From the NCBI GenBank assembly GCA_964437465.1, contig CAYTGI010000005.1, positions 5,203 through 69,202 on the forward strand: a stretch of 64,000 nucleotides of DNA, given 5' to 3'. The notes under the pieces were generated by a model. The model saw only the letters and a program-made list of their open reading frames with translations. It had not been told where the DNA came from and ran no database searches. The position numbers and the translations under genes were made by a program. Within the stretch, counting starts at the first letter, position 1. Every line of letters begins with the position of its first letter. This DNA is from an uncultured Candidatus Saccharibacteria bacterium (GTDB lineage Bacteria > Patescibacteriota > Dojkabacteria > J137). Below are positions 3,490-62,910 of the stretch, one piece after another.

Positions 3490-3912
3490 TCAGTACCAAC
3501 CTTCCATAATCGTCACTTTCATTTTTTGCTCAGGATTTTTTAGTAGTTCGACAATTTTTCTATCTAAATGATTAGCTCCTCTATTTAAATTGAACCCAAG
3601 AGTTCTTTCTGAATCAAAATGACTTTTTCTTAAAACTATTTCGTGGTCAGAGTTAAAGTTCGGATTTATTGTGCACTTAAATTCACTTGAAATAATCTCA
3701 CCATTTTCATCTTTAACCTCACAAATTACCTTTATCTTTTTCTTAAATTCTTTTAGTTTAGAAGTTTCAAAATCAGACTTTATTCCGATGATACAATCCC
3801 CTCGTTCGGTTAGATCTTCGTCTTTTGTAAACTCTATTGTCTTAAAGTGGGTTGCAAGAATATTTGGATGGCCAAAACATGTGAATGAGTAAGATCTCCT
3901 ATCTTCAGGCAT
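3490..3912 (-). CDS. DUF371-like protein
   Basis: FGHPNILATHFKTIEFTKDEDLTERGDCIIGI resembles the DUF371 family as remembered. Confidence 0.4.
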   Translation of the reverse strand: MPEDRRSYSFTCFGHPNILATHFKTIEFTKDEDLTERGDCIIGIKSDFETSKLKEFKKKIKVICEVKDENGEIISSEFKCTINPNFNSDHEIVLRKSHFDSERTLGFNLNRGANHLDRKIVELLKNPEQKMKVTIMEGWY

Positions 3913-4108
3913 TTTTTACAAAGTTTTTAACTACTTCAACAAAGTAAAAAACGATAATTGAAAGGATTGCATTTAGAGTAACTACCAAGAAATTCATTTC
4001 TTCAAAAATAGAAACAATAGCTAAAGTTGAAATGAAAACTGAAACGAAAATGGTTAATGATTTTATTAGATTGTTTTTAAGAGAGGATTTTTTTAGTTGA
4101 ATATTCAT
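3905..4108 (-). CDS. Small membrane protein (hypothetical)
   Basis: 67-aa hydrophobic ORF. Confidence 0.3.
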   Translation of the reverse strand: MNIQLKKSSLKNNLIKSLTIFVSVFISTLAIVSIFEEMNFLVVTLNAILSIIVFYFVEVVKNFVKNA

Positions 4109-4404: not shown

Positions 4405-5052
4405 CTATTTGACTACAATTCCAACTATGTAAAAAACATCACGATTTCTCTTACTCAAGATTTTCTTTCCCCAAGGTGATTCAATAAGTTCCTTTTCTTC
4501 TTCTGTTAACTTTTTTACTTCAGTAATCTTTATTCCATATTTTAGGATTTCTTTTTTAAAATCACTATTTAAATATTTTTCATTAAGTTCCGGCAGATCT
4601 CTTTCGCTTTTGAACTTCTCTTCATATTTTTCATCATAAGTTGTTACTACTTTTAACATTCCGTTATTTTTTGCAACTATAGCAATATTGCTAATAATAT
4701 TATTATCTAAATTTATAAAACCCTCTAATAAAGATCCCCAAGGAAAGTTTATCTGAACTTCATCGGCAACTGATTCAAGTTCTTTTGGAAGGTTCTCCGC
4801 AACACCATGAATAAAAACTATATTTCTTAAACCACCTTTTGCAAGTTTTCTCCTTGCTTTTCTAGAGACTTCTTCTAGCCCTTTGTAGTTTGCATCAATT
4901 CCAATATAGAAAATTCCAGGGTTATTGTAGGCTTGTTTATAGGTCTGTTTTCCATCGCCACAACCTAAATCAACGATAACTGACTTAAAACTAGGGTCAA
5001 TTTTGAGTTTTTCAACTGGATAGGTTTTCTTGCCTCTAATCTCATTAATCAT
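4405..5052 (-). CDS. NpmA/KamB-like 16S rRNA (adenine1408-N1)-methyltransferase homolog (class I SAM methyltransferase)
   Basis: Motifs VDLGCGDG, FYIGIDAN, KGGLRNIVF, LPKEL..AD, INFPWGSLLEG, VTTYDEKYEE and ITEVKKL align with the remembered NpmA/KamB pattern. Confidence 0.5.
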   Translation of the reverse strand: MINEIRGKKTYPVEKLKIDPSFKSVIVDLGCGDGKQTYKQAYNNPGIFYIGIDANYKGLEEVSRKARRKLAKGGLRNIVFIHGVAENLPKELESVADEVQINFPWGSLLEGFINLDNNIISNIAIVAKNNGMLKVVTTYDEKYEEKFKSERDLPELNEKYLNSDFKKEILKYGIKITEVKKLTEEEKELIESPWGKKILSKRNRDVFYIVGIVVK

Positions 5053-5092
5053 AAAGTAATTATAACCAATAAGTACTAAGGTACCTAGGTAC

Positions 5093-5121
5093 TTGAGTAC
5101 AATAGTATTAATTTGTATAAT
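5093..5121 (+). promoter_or_regulatory. Sigma70-like promoter (TTGAGT-N17-TATAAT)
   Basis: -35 at 5093-5098 and -10 at 5116-5121 with a 17-nt spacer. Confidence 0.45.
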
Positions 5122-5127
5122 TGCGAC

Positions 5128-5169
5128 ATGAAATTCAGATTTTATTATTACTACTTATACCTGACCTAG
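5128..5169 (+). CDS. Tyr-rich leader peptide MKFRFYYYYLYLT (putative attenuator leader for tyrA)
   Basis: 13-codon ORF with 5 Tyr and 2 Phe codons between the promoter and a terminator hairpin, immediately upstream of prephenate dehydrogenase. Confidence 0.45.
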   Translation: MKFRFYYYYLYLT

Positions 5170-5197
5170 GGAGTTAGTAATATTTGTATGATAATAG

Positions 5198-5225
5198 AAG
5201 CTCCTAAAAAGGGAGCTTTTTTTTG
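5198..5225 (+). terminator. Rho-independent terminator / attenuator hairpin
   Basis: aagctcc-taaaaa-gggagct followed by T8. Confidence 0.55.
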
Positions 5226-5256: not shown

Positions 5257-6009
5257 ATGAAATATACAGTTGGAATCATTGGAAATGGGAGGTTTGGAGA
5301 TATGCTTTATAAGACGTTTGATAGATTTGGTAAGAACGATTTTAAAGTAAATATGTTCTCTAGAAGTTATGACCATAATAATGCAAAAGTTAAAAGTAAA
5401 AATTCAAAAAGATTTAGCTCATTAGATGAAGTGTGTTCTTCAGACATTATTATCCCTGCAGTTCCTATTTCTGTTTTTGAAAAACAAATAATTGATATTA
5501 AGGGCTTAGTACCAGAAACATCATTAGTTGTTGATGTTTGTTCCGTAAGTGTTCATCCTGCTAAGGTAATGCTCAAAAATCTAAAGTGTGATCTTCTTTC
5601 AACTCATCCAATGTTTGGTCCGGATTCTTCTAAAGATGCTACTGATTTTAAAGATTTAAAATTCATACATCATCCACTCAAAGTAACTAACCAAGAAAAG
5701 GAAGATGCATTTCTTTCTTTTTGGAAAGAACTTGGATGTGACATGAGACAGCTAACCCCAGAAGAACACGATAAACAGGCAGCATACACTCATGCATATG
5801 CTTTTTTAATAGGTAAGATAGGTATTATGATGGAAGTTAGAAGAAATGATATATCTACAAAAGGCTTTGAGGGTGTTTTGTACAACCAAGAAGCTGTTGA
5901 AAACGATACGAGCACGCTTTTTAACGATATGTTTACTTATAACCCTTTTGCAAAAGAGATGGTGTCTAGATTTATTAAGACAGTAAAGGAGATACAAGGT
6001 AGGTTATAG
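5257..6009 (+). CDS. tyrA: Prephenate/arogenate dehydrogenase
   Basis: N-terminal Rossmann GIIGNGRFG, plus PAVPI and STHPMFGP motifs. Confidence 0.8.
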   Translation: MKYTVGIIGNGRFGDMLYKTFDRFGKNDFKVNMFSRSYDHNNAKVKSKNSKRFSSLDEVCSSDIIIPAVPISVFEKQIIDIKGLVPETSLVVDVCSVSVHPAKVMLKNLKCDLLSTHPMFGPDSSKDATDFKDLKFIHHPLKVTNQEKEDAFLSFWKELGCDMRQLTPEEHDKQAAYTHAYAFLIGKIGIMMEVRRNDISTKGFEGVLYNQEAVENDTSTLFNDMFTYNPFAKEMVSRFIKTVKEIQGRL

Positions 6010-6021
6010 TGTTGTCAGGTA

Positions 6022-6794
6022 TTGACAACATTGCGAAAAGGGAGCTATAATATTAAAGTTAAAATTAATAAAATAGCTTTACAAATTGCCGATCAAAAAA
6101 CTTATGAAGGGGAACCAGGCACTATGCCAGTTAGATTATCTTCTGCAAATGGTTTCGATACTAACTATGAATTTGAAGTTAATGCTGAAAATATAATTAT
6201 CGCTACTGGAGATTCCGACGAAGCACACCTGCAAAGACTTAATCTATATAAAAAAGTAAAGAATTCACTGGAAGGTGATTTTATTTTATTTGATTGGGGT
6301 CATTTAGAAGTTTTACTTCAAACCTGTGGAAAAGGTATTGCTAATAGTGGAAATGCAATGGTATCTATTGCTTTGTACAATGAAGAAGAAGGGTTCGGAG
6401 GCGAGCCTCTGCGACTGTGGAGGGGGAAAGATCAGTATCTTTCTATGCATATGTAAGAATTGATGATTTAGTAGAGTCTAGCGATATTGGAAATGCTATC
6501 CATAGAGTAAAACAAATAGTAGGTCAGTGTTCAACAGGAACTTTAGGATATGTCGATAGAATTGTTGCTAGTGGTAATGCTGTTAAAATAGAAAAAACAA
6601 GAGAGGCCTGGGAGCATACATATAGCCAACTCAGAGCTTGTATGGCATTCTTTGAAAAGGTAGCAAGCTTGGAATTAAGTTATGAACAAGTGGGTATTTT
6701 AATGCAATTAAAAGCAGATCTTGATCGATTTAGTGATGCTATGGATGATAATAGTGATGCTGGCTTTAAAGCTTGTATAGAAAAACTTTCATAA
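6022..6794 (+). CDS. Hypothetical protein (two ORFs probably joined by a frameshift in the G5 run at 6422-6426)
   Basis: ORFs 6022-6456 and 6417-6794 overlap. Adding one G to the G5 run gives a continuous 257-aa reading. Confidence 0.35.
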
Positions 6795-6815
6795 AAGTAT
6801 AAAAAAATAATAAAA

Positions 6816-6842
6816 AGCCTGGATTATTCCAGGTTTTTTTTA
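6816..6842 (+). terminator. Rho-independent terminator
   Basis: cctgga-ttat-tccagg followed by T8. Confidence 0.5.
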
Positions 6843-9128: not shown

Positions 9129-10598
9129 ATGACACGAGAAAAAGTTAAAGAACTTCTTACACCAATTACAATTTCAAAGGTACTTAGTAAGGTTAAGCAT
9201 GAAAATGCTGATCGACTTTGGATTGTAAAGGTGGATAACGGCTCAGGTGAAGAAGTTCAGATAGTAACTGCAGCAGATAACTTTAACAAAGGTGATTTAG
9301 TTGTTCATCTTGGCCCTGGAAATGTAGTTCCAGGTTGGCTGTTTAAAGAAGGTGAGGAGATAAAATTGGAAGAGAGAAAAATGAGAGGAGAAATTTCAAG
9401 CGGAATGTTGCTTGCAGAAGATGAGATAGGGATTGGAGAGGATCATGAAGGACTTTTAGTAATTAATAATGAAGAATTACAAAATGACTTAATTGGTAAG
9501 TCGATTTTAGAGGTTTTGAGTGAAGAGCAACTAGATACTGCTTATAAAAATGCTGATGTTATAGAAATTACACCTGAAATGCAGGAGAAAATTGATTTAA
9601 TTAAGAGAGATTTGGCTGAGATTATCGGAGAAGAAGATATTCCTGCAATCATAAATAAAAGACCTCTTAAGATTTATTGGGGAACTGCTCCTACTGGAAA
9701 ACCTAGTGTTGGGTATTTTGTACCAATGATTAAGATTTCAGACTTTTTGAAGGCAGGTTGTGAAGTTAAAATCTTACTTGCTAATATTCATGCATTTCTA
9801 GACAATATGAAATCCTCATGGGAAGTAGTGAACTACCGTTCTGAATATTACAAAATTATAACAACTGAGATTTTAAAAGTTTTAGGTGCACCTCTAGATA
9901 AGCTTGAATTTGTCGAGGGATCAAGTTACCAACTTGATGCAAAATACACAATGGATATGTATAAAATCGCCACTATGACAACAACAAACAGTGTACAAGG
10001 CGCAGGGGCTGAGGTAGTAAAGCAAGTTGAAAATCCTGTTCTGGGGGGTTTACTATATCCTATTCTTCAAGCACTAGATGAGGAATATCTTGGGGTCGAT
10101 GCACAGCTAGGAGGGGTTGATCAAAGAAAAATCTTTATGTTCGCAAGAGAAAGTCTTCCAAGGCTAAATTATAAGAAAAGAATTCATTTTATGAATCCAC
10201 TAATTCCTGGACTTGGTAAATCTGGAAAGATGTCCTCAAGTGAACCAAACTCAAAAATAGACTTCGAAGATACAGATGAAATTATTAAAGATAAGATTAA
10301 TAAATCATATTCTGAAGATGGGGTTATAGAAAATAATGGCTTACTGGCACTACTAAAATATATTATTTTTAGGAAATTTGAGGTTGATAATGAAACACTA
10401 AAAATTGAAAGACCAGAAAAATGGGGAGGAGATGTGGAATATAGTAATTATGAACATTTAGAAAAAGACTTTATTAACAAGAAACTTTCTTCAGTCGATC
10501 TAAAACCAGCGGTCGCAAGTACAATAATTCAGATGACTCAGCCAATAAGAGATAGAATTGGAAAAGAACAAAAGTTAGTTGAAAAAGCATATAATTAA
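9129..10598 (+). CDS. tyrS: Tyrosyl-tRNA synthetase, archaeal/eukaryotic type, with an N-terminal tRNA-binding (Myf/EMAP-like) domain
   Basis: IYWGTAPTGKPSVGYFVPM...KAGCEVKILLANIHAFLDNMK...GAEVVKQVENPVLGGLLYP...KMSSS tracks eukaryotic TyrRS closely. The N-terminal ~160 aa have an OB-fold tRNA-binding signature. Confidence 0.85.
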   Translation: MTREKVKELLTPITISKVLSKVKHENADRLWIVKVDNGSGEEVQIVTAADNFNKGDLVVHLGPGNVVPGWLFKEGEEIKLEERKMRGEISSGMLLAEDEIGIGEDHEGLLVINNEELQNDLIGKSILEVLSEEQLDTAYKNADVIEITPEMQEKIDLIKRDLAEIIGEEDIPAIINKRPLKIYWGTAPTGKPSVGYFVPMIKISDFLKAGCEVKILLANIHAFLDNMKSSWEVVNYRSEYYKIITTEILKVLGAPLDKLEFVEGSSYQLDAKYTMDMYKIATMTTTNSVQGAGAEVVKQVENPVLGGLLYPILQALDEEYLGVDAQLGGVDQRKIFMFARESLPRLNYKKRIHFMNPLIPGLGKSGKMSSSEPNSKIDFEDTDEIIKDKINKSYSEDGVIENNGLLALLKYIIFRKFEVDNETLKIERPEKWGGDVEYSNYEHLEKDFINKKLSSVDLKPAVASTIIQMTQPIRDRIGKEQKLVEKAYN

Positions 10599-28857: not shown

Positions 28858-28897
28858 GGTACATTGGTACATTGGTACATTGGTACATTGGTACTTA
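28858..28897. repeat. (GGTACATT)x5 octamer tandem repeat
   Basis: Five near-perfect copies that abut the stop of ORF 28895-29155. Confidence 0.9.
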
Positions 28898-30313: not shown

Positions 30314-30369
30314 GGTACGTTGGTACGTTGGTACGTTGGTACGTTGGTACGTTGGTACGTTGGTACATG
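30314..30369. repeat. (GGTACGTT)x6 + GGTACATG octamer tandem repeat
   Basis: Perfect tandem copies between TA modules. Confidence 0.9.
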
Positions 30370-33157: not shown

Positions 33158-33339
33158 GAGAGAAGGGTCGGCTTATACAGCGATTCTTCTTTCCCATTCT
33201 TTAGGAATCCTATTTAGGATATCTAAAGAAAAATCTTTACCCCCTTTCTTTTGAAAAAAAGAAATTAGCTTCGCAGCATCTCAGTTTGTTACACCGTCCG
33301 AGTACTGAAGTACCAAAGTACCTATGTACTTAAGTACCT

Positions 33340-33702
33340 TTATACCTTCGTACTATAAAATGTCTTTAATTTCCTCAGCATATGAATAACCTCCTTCGTT
33401 TTCTTATCTATTTCTTCGTAATTTTCGCTTGTCAAGTATTGTAGATCTTTACTTAATTTTAGAAAATACCCTAGCTCATAAGCTGACGCTAGAGATATAC
33501 TTAAAAATCTTATAAATTCCTTCCTACTATCTCTACTACTCCCCTCTACAATATTTGAGGGAATAGAATAGCTTGCCCTTCGCATTTGACTAACTAATCC
33601 GTACTGTTCTGTTTTAGGAAATGATTTAGTAGAAGTGTAAATATTAATTGTAAGGTTATGTGAATATTCCCACACCTTTAGCTTAGTATAATCGTGCATC
33701 AT
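33340..33702 (-). CDS. Four-helix-bundle protein (23S rRNA IVS / Avd-like family)
   Basis: LKVWEYSHNLTINIY...FPKTEQYGLVSQMRRASYSIPSNIVEGSSR matches the family signature. Confidence 0.65.
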   Translation of the reverse strand: MMHDYTKLKVWEYSHNLTINIYTSTKSFPKTEQYGLVSQMRRASYSIPSNIVEGSSRDSRKEFIRFLSISLASAYELGYFLKLSKDLQYLTSENYEEIDKKTKEVIHMLRKLKTFYSTKV

Positions 33703-33768
33703 GTTTTCGTTAATAGTTAAACATGGGGAATACTCTAGTACCTGAGTACATTAGTACTTGTATACATT

Positions 33769-35396: not shown

Positions 35397-35470
35397 TACC
35401 TTACTACTTAGCTACCTCAGTACATTGGTACTCTATAGTGACAAACTAATAAAAAGTTGTATAATAAATC

Positions 35471-62664: not shown

Positions 62665-62910
62665 GTTCAAAGTATAAAAAGTACTTATGTACTTAAGTAC
62701 CTAGGTACTTGTGTACTATATATTCTTTGAGGACTACTCAATGGCAGTGGTACCACCTCTATTTCCCGATGAAGAATCGGAACACTTATTACAGCTATTT
62801 CGGGCATACCCGGAGGATTTTACTACTTTCGGTTCTTTCCTCAGCACACCTGTGACAAGCAAGTGTATTGCTTAACAGATTATATCTTAGTTTTTTACTA
62901 CGTGCCAGAA

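Follow-up and report, generated by a model that had tools for sequence, protein, structure and literature searches.

Does the short, tyrosine-rich open reading frame (ORF) that precedes a tyrA gene in a Candidate Phyla Radiation (CPR) bacterium act as a sensor of charged tRNA-Tyr, and how would a ribosome be brought to an mRNA start that carries no Shine-Dalgarno motif? The question is raised by a 64-kb stretch of contig CAYTGI010000005.1 (hereafter the window, with a G+C content of 34%), in which a promoter, a 13-codon ORF and an intrinsic terminator are placed between two divergent genes. Comparative and thermodynamic evidence makes it likely, with a probability of roughly 85%, that this leader is a functional ribosome-mediated attenuator that senses charged tRNA-Tyr and controls tyrA. 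Within this reading, we infer the transcription start site, the translation of the ORF, the stalling of the ribosome and the response in vivo.

Architecture and folding of the leader

The leader unit is located on the plus strand, in the 204-nt intergenic gap between the divergent genes. Its promoter (5093-5121, plus strand) contains a -35 hexamer TTGAGT (5093-5098) and a -10 hexamer TATAAT (5116-5121) separated by a 17-nt spacer, and matches 10 of the 12 consensus positions in a consensus scan. The leader ORF (5128-5169, plus strand) starts with an ATG at 5128, 6 nt after the -10 box and without a Shine-Dalgarno motif, encodes the 13-residue peptide MKFRFYYYYLYLT and ends with a TAG stop codon at 5167-5169. 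Tyr is specified by 5 of the 13 codons, which form the putative regulatory stretch at 5143-5160 (plus strand): four are consecutive (TAT TAT TAC TAC, 5143-5154), the fifth (TAC) is found at 5158-5160, and both synonymous Tyr codons are present. The terminator (5196-5224, plus strand) has a stem of 10 pairs at 5196-5220, a T8 tract at 5217-5224 and a hairpin energy of -12.6 kcal/mol. The leader transcript would be about 97 nt long, and 32 nt separate the T8 tract from the ATG of tyrA. An earlier reading of this DNA, made from the letters and ORF translations only (the sequence-only reading), had proposed a TTGAGT-17-TATAAT promoter, a 13-codon ORF with four consecutive Tyr codons plus a fifth, a strong intrinsic terminator with a T8 tract and a distance of about 30 nt to a TyrA-family gene. 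All of these elements were confirmed, with deviations of no more than 1 nt from the positions proposed.

The leader RNA can be divided into four segments, all on the plus strand. Segment 1 (5146-5163) pairs with segment 2 when the ribosome is absent and is the predicted anti-antiterminator. Segment 2 (5167-5182) overlaps the stop codon and has two alternative partners, segments 1 and 3. Segment 3 (5197-5205) is the 5' arm of the terminator (GAAGCUCCU), common to the antiterminator (2:3) and the terminator (3:4), and segment 4 (5211-5224) includes the 3' arm (GGGAGCUUU, 5211-5219) together with the T8 tract. The core of segment 2, GGGAGUU (5169-5175), nearly repeats the 3' arm of the terminator (GGGAGCU) and pairs with AGCUCCU at 5199-5205; the whole alternative fold has an energy of -10.8 kcal/mol and excludes the terminator. 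No other part of the window leader pairs better with the terminator 5' arm than segment 2 (-9.2 kcal/mol, shuffle p = 0.013). Such a pairing of a GGGAG motif with the CTCC arm had been anticipated by the sequence-only reading; the pairing holds, and the motif is displaced by one base, from 5168-5172 to 5169-5173, so that its first G (5169) is the last base of the leader stop codon. The minimum free energy (MFE) fold of the 101-nt RNA comprises the 1:2 hairpin and the terminator (-22.9 kcal/mol, z = -2.3). In the 1:2 hairpin, RNA positions 19-29 and 33-36 pair with positions 40-55, and the Tyr codons pair with the bases just 3' of the stop codon. This topology is identical in all eight Dojkabacteria-like leaders, the window included.

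The ribosome was mimicked by forcing bases to be single-stranded, and its footprint was taken to end 12 nt 3' of the first A-site base. When the A site is placed on any of the Tyr codons 6-9 of the window leader, the nascent transcript that precedes the 3' arm folds into the 2:3 antiterminator of -10.8 kcal/mol. Moving the A site to the stop codon hides segment 2, and a terminator hairpin of -12.6 kcal/mol is formed. The mutually exclusive structure, for which a folding check had been suggested earlier, is thus obtained with a ribosome on the Tyr run and not with a ribosome on the stop codon. The same behavior is observed for the eight Dojkabacteria-like leaders: the terminator is formed in 8/8 when the ribosome is missing or sits on the stop codon, and when it sits on the Tyr run the nascent transcript folds into the 2:3 antiterminator, with energies of -7 to -16 kcal/mol.

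The proposed mechanism would operate as follows. Transcription would start about 7 nt past the TATAAT box, at or beside the AUG of the 13-codon ORF, and a 70S ribosome would load on this 5'-terminal AUG and trail the polymerase. When Tyr-tRNA is plentiful, the ribosome would reach the UAG codon and its footprint would hide segment 2. Formation of the 3:4 terminator would then end transcription at T8, 32 nt ahead of tyrA. Under a shortage of Tyr-tRNA, the ribosome would stall at the four Tyr codons, 15-26 nt upstream of segment 2. It would cover segment 1, and segment 2, left exposed, would pair with segment 3 before the polymerase has made segment 4. The 2:3 pairing would block the terminator and the polymerase would continue into tyrA. 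In the absence of a ribosome, the 1:2 and 3:4 hairpins would both form and transcription would terminate.

Other roles for elements of the gap were considered and rejected. The terminator was not assigned to the upstream gene (4405-5052), which is divergent and on the minus strand. The GGGAG motif was not taken as the Shine-Dalgarno motif of an ATG at 5187, given that the spacing is too long. A second promoter for tyrA between the terminator and the ATG was discarded, as no -10-like box exists in that stretch.

Leaders at related loci

The TyrA of the window is related to about 30 cluster representatives with 43-75% identity. Its closest named homologue, which is 75% identical and shares its neighbours, belongs to Candidatus Dojkabacteria, a lineage of the CPR/Patescibacteria. 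Scans of genome and metagenome contigs with the TyrA alignment retrieved mostly distant homologues of 30-40% identity, the close ones being L001 and L002. Within the TyrA clade, 14 distinct loci were compared: 7 contain a leader, 2 a T-box and 5 neither.

The layout of the window recurs in seven Dojkabacteria-like CPR loci that have TyrA proteins of 48-75% identity and differing nucleotide sequences. The leader peptides are MQNKYYYNYYVPLI in L161 (TyrA identity of 75%), MQNNFYYYTYYSYLI in L001 (69%), MKRIAQNYYFYFFNPKSARR in L164 (60%), MSETNLNQNYYYWNKSRIPG in L178 (55%), MESNRSAKYYYQNLEFRD in L167 (54%), MSSKLNSNNMYYYYPIYS in L171 (53%) and MNKLNRTNNYYYYYLSYCG in L175 (48%). In all seven, the leader and the terminator are followed by tyrA or by an operon containing tyrA; in L164 the leader is ahead of a DAHP-synthase-like gene, identified with Pfam, and tyrA comes next, and the leaders of L171 and L175 precede a tyrA-tyrS operon. 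Only the aromatic run is conserved among the peptides, whose length varies from 13 to 27 residues. The Tyr runs of the relatives mix TAT and TAC codons, and their interruptions are whole codons (YYYNYY, YYYTYYSY) that keep the frame. In 7/7 relatives, a copy of the 3' arm of the local terminator overlaps the stop codon or directly adjoins it. A search for Tyr-rich leaders at the tyrA genes of relatives had been recommended by the sequence-only reading; it returned these seven loci and five more distant tyrA operons, described below.

In a MAFFT alignment of the region from segment 2 to the terminator, the stems are one column out of register between loci (CUCC versus CCUCC arms). Given this inconsistent register, alignment-free tests were used in place of pair counting. 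The first consisted of cross-locus duplex energies between the stop-codon region and the terminator 5' arm, with permutation. The mean duplex energy is -8.6 kcal/mol with the own terminator arm and -5.2 kcal/mol with foreign arms (permutation p = 0.00085), and the segment 2 cores vary with the local arms (GGGAGU, GGAGC, GGAGGU, GGGAUU, GCGGGU, CCCGGG). In the second test, the terminator 5' arm was paired against every part of the upstream leader, and its best match was compared with dinucleotide shuffles. The best partner overlaps or abuts the leader stop codon in 9 of 10 leaders, and the complementarity exceeds that of the shuffles, with individual p values from 0.001 to 0.2 and a Fisher p of 7e-11. 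The antiterminator fold, the conserved architecture and this co-variation all back the earlier proposal of an amino-acid-codon attenuator of the pheA/trp type.

The codon content of the leaders was compared with the gene content of the operons. A relaxed scan for aromatic leaders with terminators upstream of a tyrA match, conducted over 180 loci, found them in 19 loci, 13 of which are distinct. The more distant ones are MKKIVVNNWFFFYFTDPRVG in L146 (492-554), ahead of pheA-tyrA; MIKNITKGFYFFWFYFFSKETNLL in L128 (1984-2058), ahead of pheA-tyrA-aminotransferase; MNIDNYYNSYFYYMNRGCT in L126 (2072-2131), ahead of pheA-tyrA-DAHP synthase-EPSP synthase; MNCREQNYFFYFFTSL in L105 (714-764), ahead of an aminotransferase gene that lies downstream of tyrA; and MCFNVLYYSYYYYVAGKIQASFGMLKQ in L042 (1834-1917), ahead of an unknown gene, tyrA and an aminotransferase gene. 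L042 is a Patescibacteria metagenome-assembled genome (MAG) and the other four are metagenome contigs without taxon assignment; in several of these five leaders a TATAAT box is placed 6-9 nt upstream of the ATG. The leaders carry Tyr runs in operons whose lone recognised aromatic-pathway gene is tyrA, with or without tyrS behind it. Mixed Phe/Tyr(/Trp) runs are found where the operon is pheA-tyrA (L146, L128, L126) or DAHP synthase-tyrA (L164), or contains the aminotransferase gene (L105). The codon content therefore tracks the operon content, which fits decoding by a ribosome, as predicted if the ribosome is the sensor, and would be unexpected from a protein or ligand that recognises one RNA sequence.

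Some further features of these short ORFs were observed. One or two Asn codons are placed directly before the aromatic run, or at most 2 codons from it, in 9 of 13 leaders (L001, L161, L164, L171, L175, L178, L146, L126 and L105), in the contexts QNNF-YYY, QNK-YYY, AQN-YYFYFF, SNNM-YYYY, TNN-YYYYY, NQN-YYY, VNN-WFFF, IDN-YY and EQN-YFF. The leader of the window itself does not have this context, which may reflect AT-richness or an effect on stalling. In L017, a deltaproteobacterial MAG, tyrA is closely followed by a short ORF that contains WWW (MNYQIQTNNRFWWWQVQLFWPANGVLCL, 3844-3930) and has a terminator; this ORF looks like a Trp leader of the next operon.

Start of translation and rival explanations

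The ATG of the leader is only 6 nt after the -10 box and, for this reason, the leader mRNA is probably leaderless, with its AUG at or next to the 5' end. Shine-Dalgarno motifs (GGAG, GAGG or AGGA at -20 to -4) were found at 2 of 55 window ORFs, against 11% of random 17-mers. Since the motif is nearly absent genome-wide, its lack at the leader ORF is no evidence against translation. A TATAAT-like box that ends 4-9 nt before the start was found at 12 of 54 window ORFs, among them the divergent neighbour at 4405-5052, and at 5% of all ATG triplets. The TATAAT-to-ATG spacing pattern is shared by 9-10 of the 13 leaders found elsewhere. Leaderless mRNAs seem, from these spacings, to be the normal form of first genes in this CPR genome. 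Attenuation that is read from leaderless mRNA has been described in Corynebacterium glutamicum ilvBNC, where the attenuator is of the terminator type (PMC11857589), and mycobacteria have leaderless short ORFs with codon runs that act on translation (Canestrari et al., bioRxiv 10.1101/834739).

Several observations weigh against a ribosome-mediated attenuator. At equilibrium, the window terminator is slightly more stable than the antiterminator (-12.6 versus -10.8 kcal/mol), and relief of termination must therefore be a kinetic pre-emption. The relief of the Escherichia coli trp attenuator is likewise kinetic. The 5' AUG of the leader can also be hidden in a weak A-U hairpin. No Shine-Dalgarno motif is found at tyrA either, and its translation from the read-through transcript is suggested by an AU-rich spacer. 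The complementarity between segment 2 and the terminator arm is not individually significant in L167 and L178 (p about 0.2). Finally, no leader or T-box is found in the tyrA-proximal region examined of L002, L163, L165, L166 and L173; for L173, the negative relies on called genes, with tyrA 35 nt after the preceding gene. As five related loci have neither device, regulation of the leader type is dispensable.

A terminator/antiterminator pair does not by itself prove that the ribosome is the sensor. Termination could be relieved independently of translation if an RNA-binding protein (TRAP- or PyrR-like), tRNA-Tyr or tyrosine read the UAY-rich tract or the alternative hairpins, the ORF being incidental. 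The T-box that some relatives carry at the equivalent place, which binds tRNA, and the lack of a Shine-Dalgarno motif ahead of the leader ORF would agree with such a sensor. However, the reading frame of the Tyr triplets is in every case that of an ATG located 6-9 nt past a -10 box, their run is broken by whole codons only, and both synonymous codons occur. The coincidence of the stop codon with segment 2 in 9/10 leaders, and the mixed Phe/Tyr/Trp runs of operons that have pheA, fit decoding rather than a sequence-specific binder. In addition, the 97-nt leader is far shorter than a T-box and does not contain the T-box motif. Relief without translation is consequently judged improbable. The unit owns a promoter and a terminator that define a transcript of about 97 nt, and it might also be an independent small gene, encoding a Tyr-rich micropeptide or a small RNA that lies beside tyrA by accident; attenuator-derived small RNAs and leader peptides of Sinorhizobium are known to act in trans (PMC6614838, PMC7298713). 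This is a little less probable still, given that the peptide is unconserved outside the aromatic run and varies from 13 to 27 residues, that the unit, regardless of which genes surround it, always lies immediately ahead of tyrA, pheA or aro genes and on their strand, and that a free-standing gene would not need the co-variation of segment 2 with the terminator arm. A function in trans could add to attenuation, not replace it.

The remaining alternative is chance: an AT-rich genome yields TAY runs and hairpins, and the coincidence with tyrA would have been picked afterwards. The sequence-only reading had itself raised the concern that Tyr codon runs are commonplace here. Bare runs are indeed no great rarity, with three runs of at least 4 TAY triplets in the window (both strands) against 0.35-0.7 expected from composition (about 0.5). 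Besides the leader run, these are two (TAT)n stretches that lie within long genes but not in their frame. Pairs of promoter-like hexamers do not exceed their number in shuffled sequence (73 in the window versus 85). On the other hand, the composite of an ATG-started ORF of 8-40 residues with at least 3 identical residues in a row and a perfect-stem terminator within 100 nt was found exactly once in the 64-kb window, with both strands scanned, and that match is the leader unit. In 922 kb of other loci, where nested start codons and duplicate contigs were counted separately, the composite gave 20 matches, 15 of them being Tyr-run leader ORFs in tyrA-containing loci. The recurrence at orthologous genes, in seven Dojkabacteria-like and five more distant loci with different nucleotide sequences, and an antiterminator complementarity beyond that of shuffled leaders are comparative data by which chance is effectively refuted.

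The regulated gene, its surroundings and known attenuators

The gene under control, tyrA (5257-6009, plus strand), encodes a 250-residue dehydrogenase of the TyrA family, plant-like clade I (Pfam PDH_N, 3e-13). A profile of 28 TyrA sequences matches soybean PDH1 (prephenate dehydrogenase 1, 5T9F) over its full length, at residues 3-244, with an E-value of 1e-48. All sequences of the family alignment share the residues G9, G11 and G14 (GxGxxG), S96, H117-P122 (HPMFGP) and D217. The counterpart of Asp217 in 5T9F is residue 222, a position at which an acidic residue is the mark of arogenate-specific enzymes among the plant-like clade I TyrA proteins (PMC5681985). On account of this residue, the protein is predicted to be an arogenate dehydrogenase. 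The sequence-only reading had called it a prephenate dehydrogenase: the family is right, and arogenate is the likelier substrate. The exact substrate is only predicted, as the matches to the NCBIfam prephenate dehydrogenase models fall below their equivalog cut-offs. In most relatives tyrS adjoins tyrA, whereas the tyrS of the window (9129-10598) is located outside the attenuated unit. No further aromatic-pathway gene was recognised among the neighbours of tyrA in the 12 window ORFs scanned against Pfam, nor on the fetched contig stretches of the tyrA-only relatives.

The divergent neighbour (4405-5052, minus strand) encodes an NpmA/KamB-like 16S rRNA (A1408-N1) methyltransferase (Pfam NpmA, 3e-55). 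This type of enzyme is associated with aminoglycoside resistance and its gene is kept divergent beside tyrA in these CPR genomes; in L167 (1605-2717) the methyltransferase is fused to the neighbouring DUF371 domain. Between the divergent promoters, a GTAC-N4 array (GTACTAAGGTACCTAGGTACTTGAGTAC, 5073-5100) overlaps the -35 hexamer of the leader promoter. Arrays of this kind, with an 8-bp period (GTACNNNN, 3-7 copies), are found at intergenic or promoter sites of the window, at 5073-5100, 28859-28894, 30315-30366, 33302-33353, 33730-33765, 35412-35431 and 62681-62716. The pattern GTACN4GTACN4GTAC has 24 matches in the window against 0.02 expected, every one of them intergenic, and a degenerate form is seen in L001. 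The array is a possible transcription-factor operator or (lineage-specific) promoter element. Downstream of tyrA, a perfect consensus promoter (TTGACA, 18 nt, TATAAT; 12/12) occurs at 6022-6051, 13 nt past the stop codon, with no ATG at leaderless distance downstream. The overlapping ORFs 6022-6456 and 6417-6794 have no Pfam or NCBIfam match and are followed by a strong terminator (6812-6839). In L165, a G+C-rich and apparently structured stretch (1900-2075) is placed upstream of rpsT on an otherwise AT-rich contig, and it has no Rfam match at gathering thresholds.

The closest model for the window leader is the class of E. coli pheL-pheA (Rfam Phe_leader, RF01859), trpL and hisL. These leaders share with it a short ORF with a run of cognate codons, four segments that pair as 1:2, 2:3 and 3:4, and a stop codon beside segment 2. 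In pheL-pheA, as in the window, the intrinsic terminator is just upstream of a terminal aromatic-pathway enzyme. The window differs by its Tyr instead of Phe codons, the absence of a Shine-Dalgarno motif, a probably leaderless start and an unrelated sequence, and its host is a CPR bacterium and not a gammaproteobacterium. The Phe_leader model scores 23.9 bits (E = 0.03-0.08) on the window leader. This is below the gathering score of 55 and places the leader outside that family; the weak full-length alignment reflects mostly the shared layout and not homology. At gathering thresholds, Rfam gave a single match in the window and nine related loci, a tRNA in L166. Within E. coli, the pheST leader is an example of a synthetase operon under leader-peptide attenuation, as the tyrA-tyrS operons of L171 and L175 would be; the window differs in its amino acid, Tyr and not Phe, and in the position of tyrS.

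Tyr T-boxes (RF00230), known from tyrS and tyrA of Firmicutes, respond to the same signal, the charging of tRNA-Tyr, and also choose between terminator and antiterminator. The window leader, in contrast, does not contain a specifier stem or the T-box motif, has only about 97 nt, and its sensor would be the ribosome and not tRNA binding. The T-box model, characterised by a stem I with a specifier loop and by the conserved AANNNGGUGGUACCGCG of the antiterminator bulge, has no match in the window; around the leader this holds even when E-values up to 10 are admitted. Tyr T-boxes with a UAC specifier and no leader ORF were found ahead of the tyrA-tyrS operons of L169 (2788-2976; TyrA 54% identical; 60.8 bits, E = 5e-13) and L180 (353-545; TyrA 52% identical; 67.3 bits, E = 1e-14). 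Both matches, on CPR contigs, are full-length and score under the Rfam gathering score of 93, and for this reason they would be missed by standard annotation.

Aromatic-codon leaders have also been described in other phyla. The C. glutamicum aroR-aroF leader likewise places an aromatic-codon peptide ahead of an aromatic biosynthesis operon, but aroR (Phe-Tyr-Phe, with a single Tyr codon) is reported to respond to Phe and not to Tyr (PMC11802643), whereas the leaders described here have 4-6 Tyr codons upstream of a Tyr-specific enzyme. The mycobacterial polycysteine leaderless ORFs (10.1101/834739) also combine a codon run for one residue with the matching biosynthetic genes and sense by stalling. 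They unmask a ribosome-binding site, while the output of the window leader would be a terminator with a T8 tract. As tyrA is not preceded by a Shine-Dalgarno motif that could be masked and the hairpin is followed by T8, the window leader is not a translational attenuator of the polycysteine type. Genes of the tyrosine pathway have been described under T-boxes or repressors such as TyrR (PMC1262725, PMC11802643). A prediction for Shewanella aroF lists a tyr-tRNA-sensing attenuator, with support from a 1980 study of E. coli aroF-tyrA (PMC2659441). In a literature search that covered subscription papers only in part, no Tyr leader peptide and no attenuation or cis-regulatory RNA in CPR/Patescibacteria were found.

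The mechanism is classical, of the trp, pheA and his type; what is probably, though not certainly, new is the Tyr specificity, the occurrence in CPR and the leaderless start. The combined claim that these are the first CPR attenuators and the first Tyr leader-peptide class, that leader and T-box are swapped within the clade, and that a lone TyrA salvages host precursors is more tentative, its chances being put at slightly under even. If it is true, one clade controls tyrA, often together with tyrS, either by a leader peptide or by a T-box, in a natural swap of sensors. The presence of both devices at orthologous loci would make this clade a good system for studying the exchange of regulatory devices. 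The Tyr leaders merit an Rfam family and would provide a new annotation signal for aromatic-amino-acid genes in CPR genomes. The CPR are uncultivated bacteria with minimal genomes, whose gene regulation is poorly known, and the Tyr leader would indicate that transcription and translation are coupled on leaderless mRNAs in these organisms. It would also mark the lone TyrA as a physiologically important, Tyr-responsive enzyme, with a bearing on the use of host-derived nutrients: if the combined claim holds, these ultra-small episymbionts may complete tyrosine synthesis from the arogenate or prephenate of their hosts when Tyr-tRNA is low.

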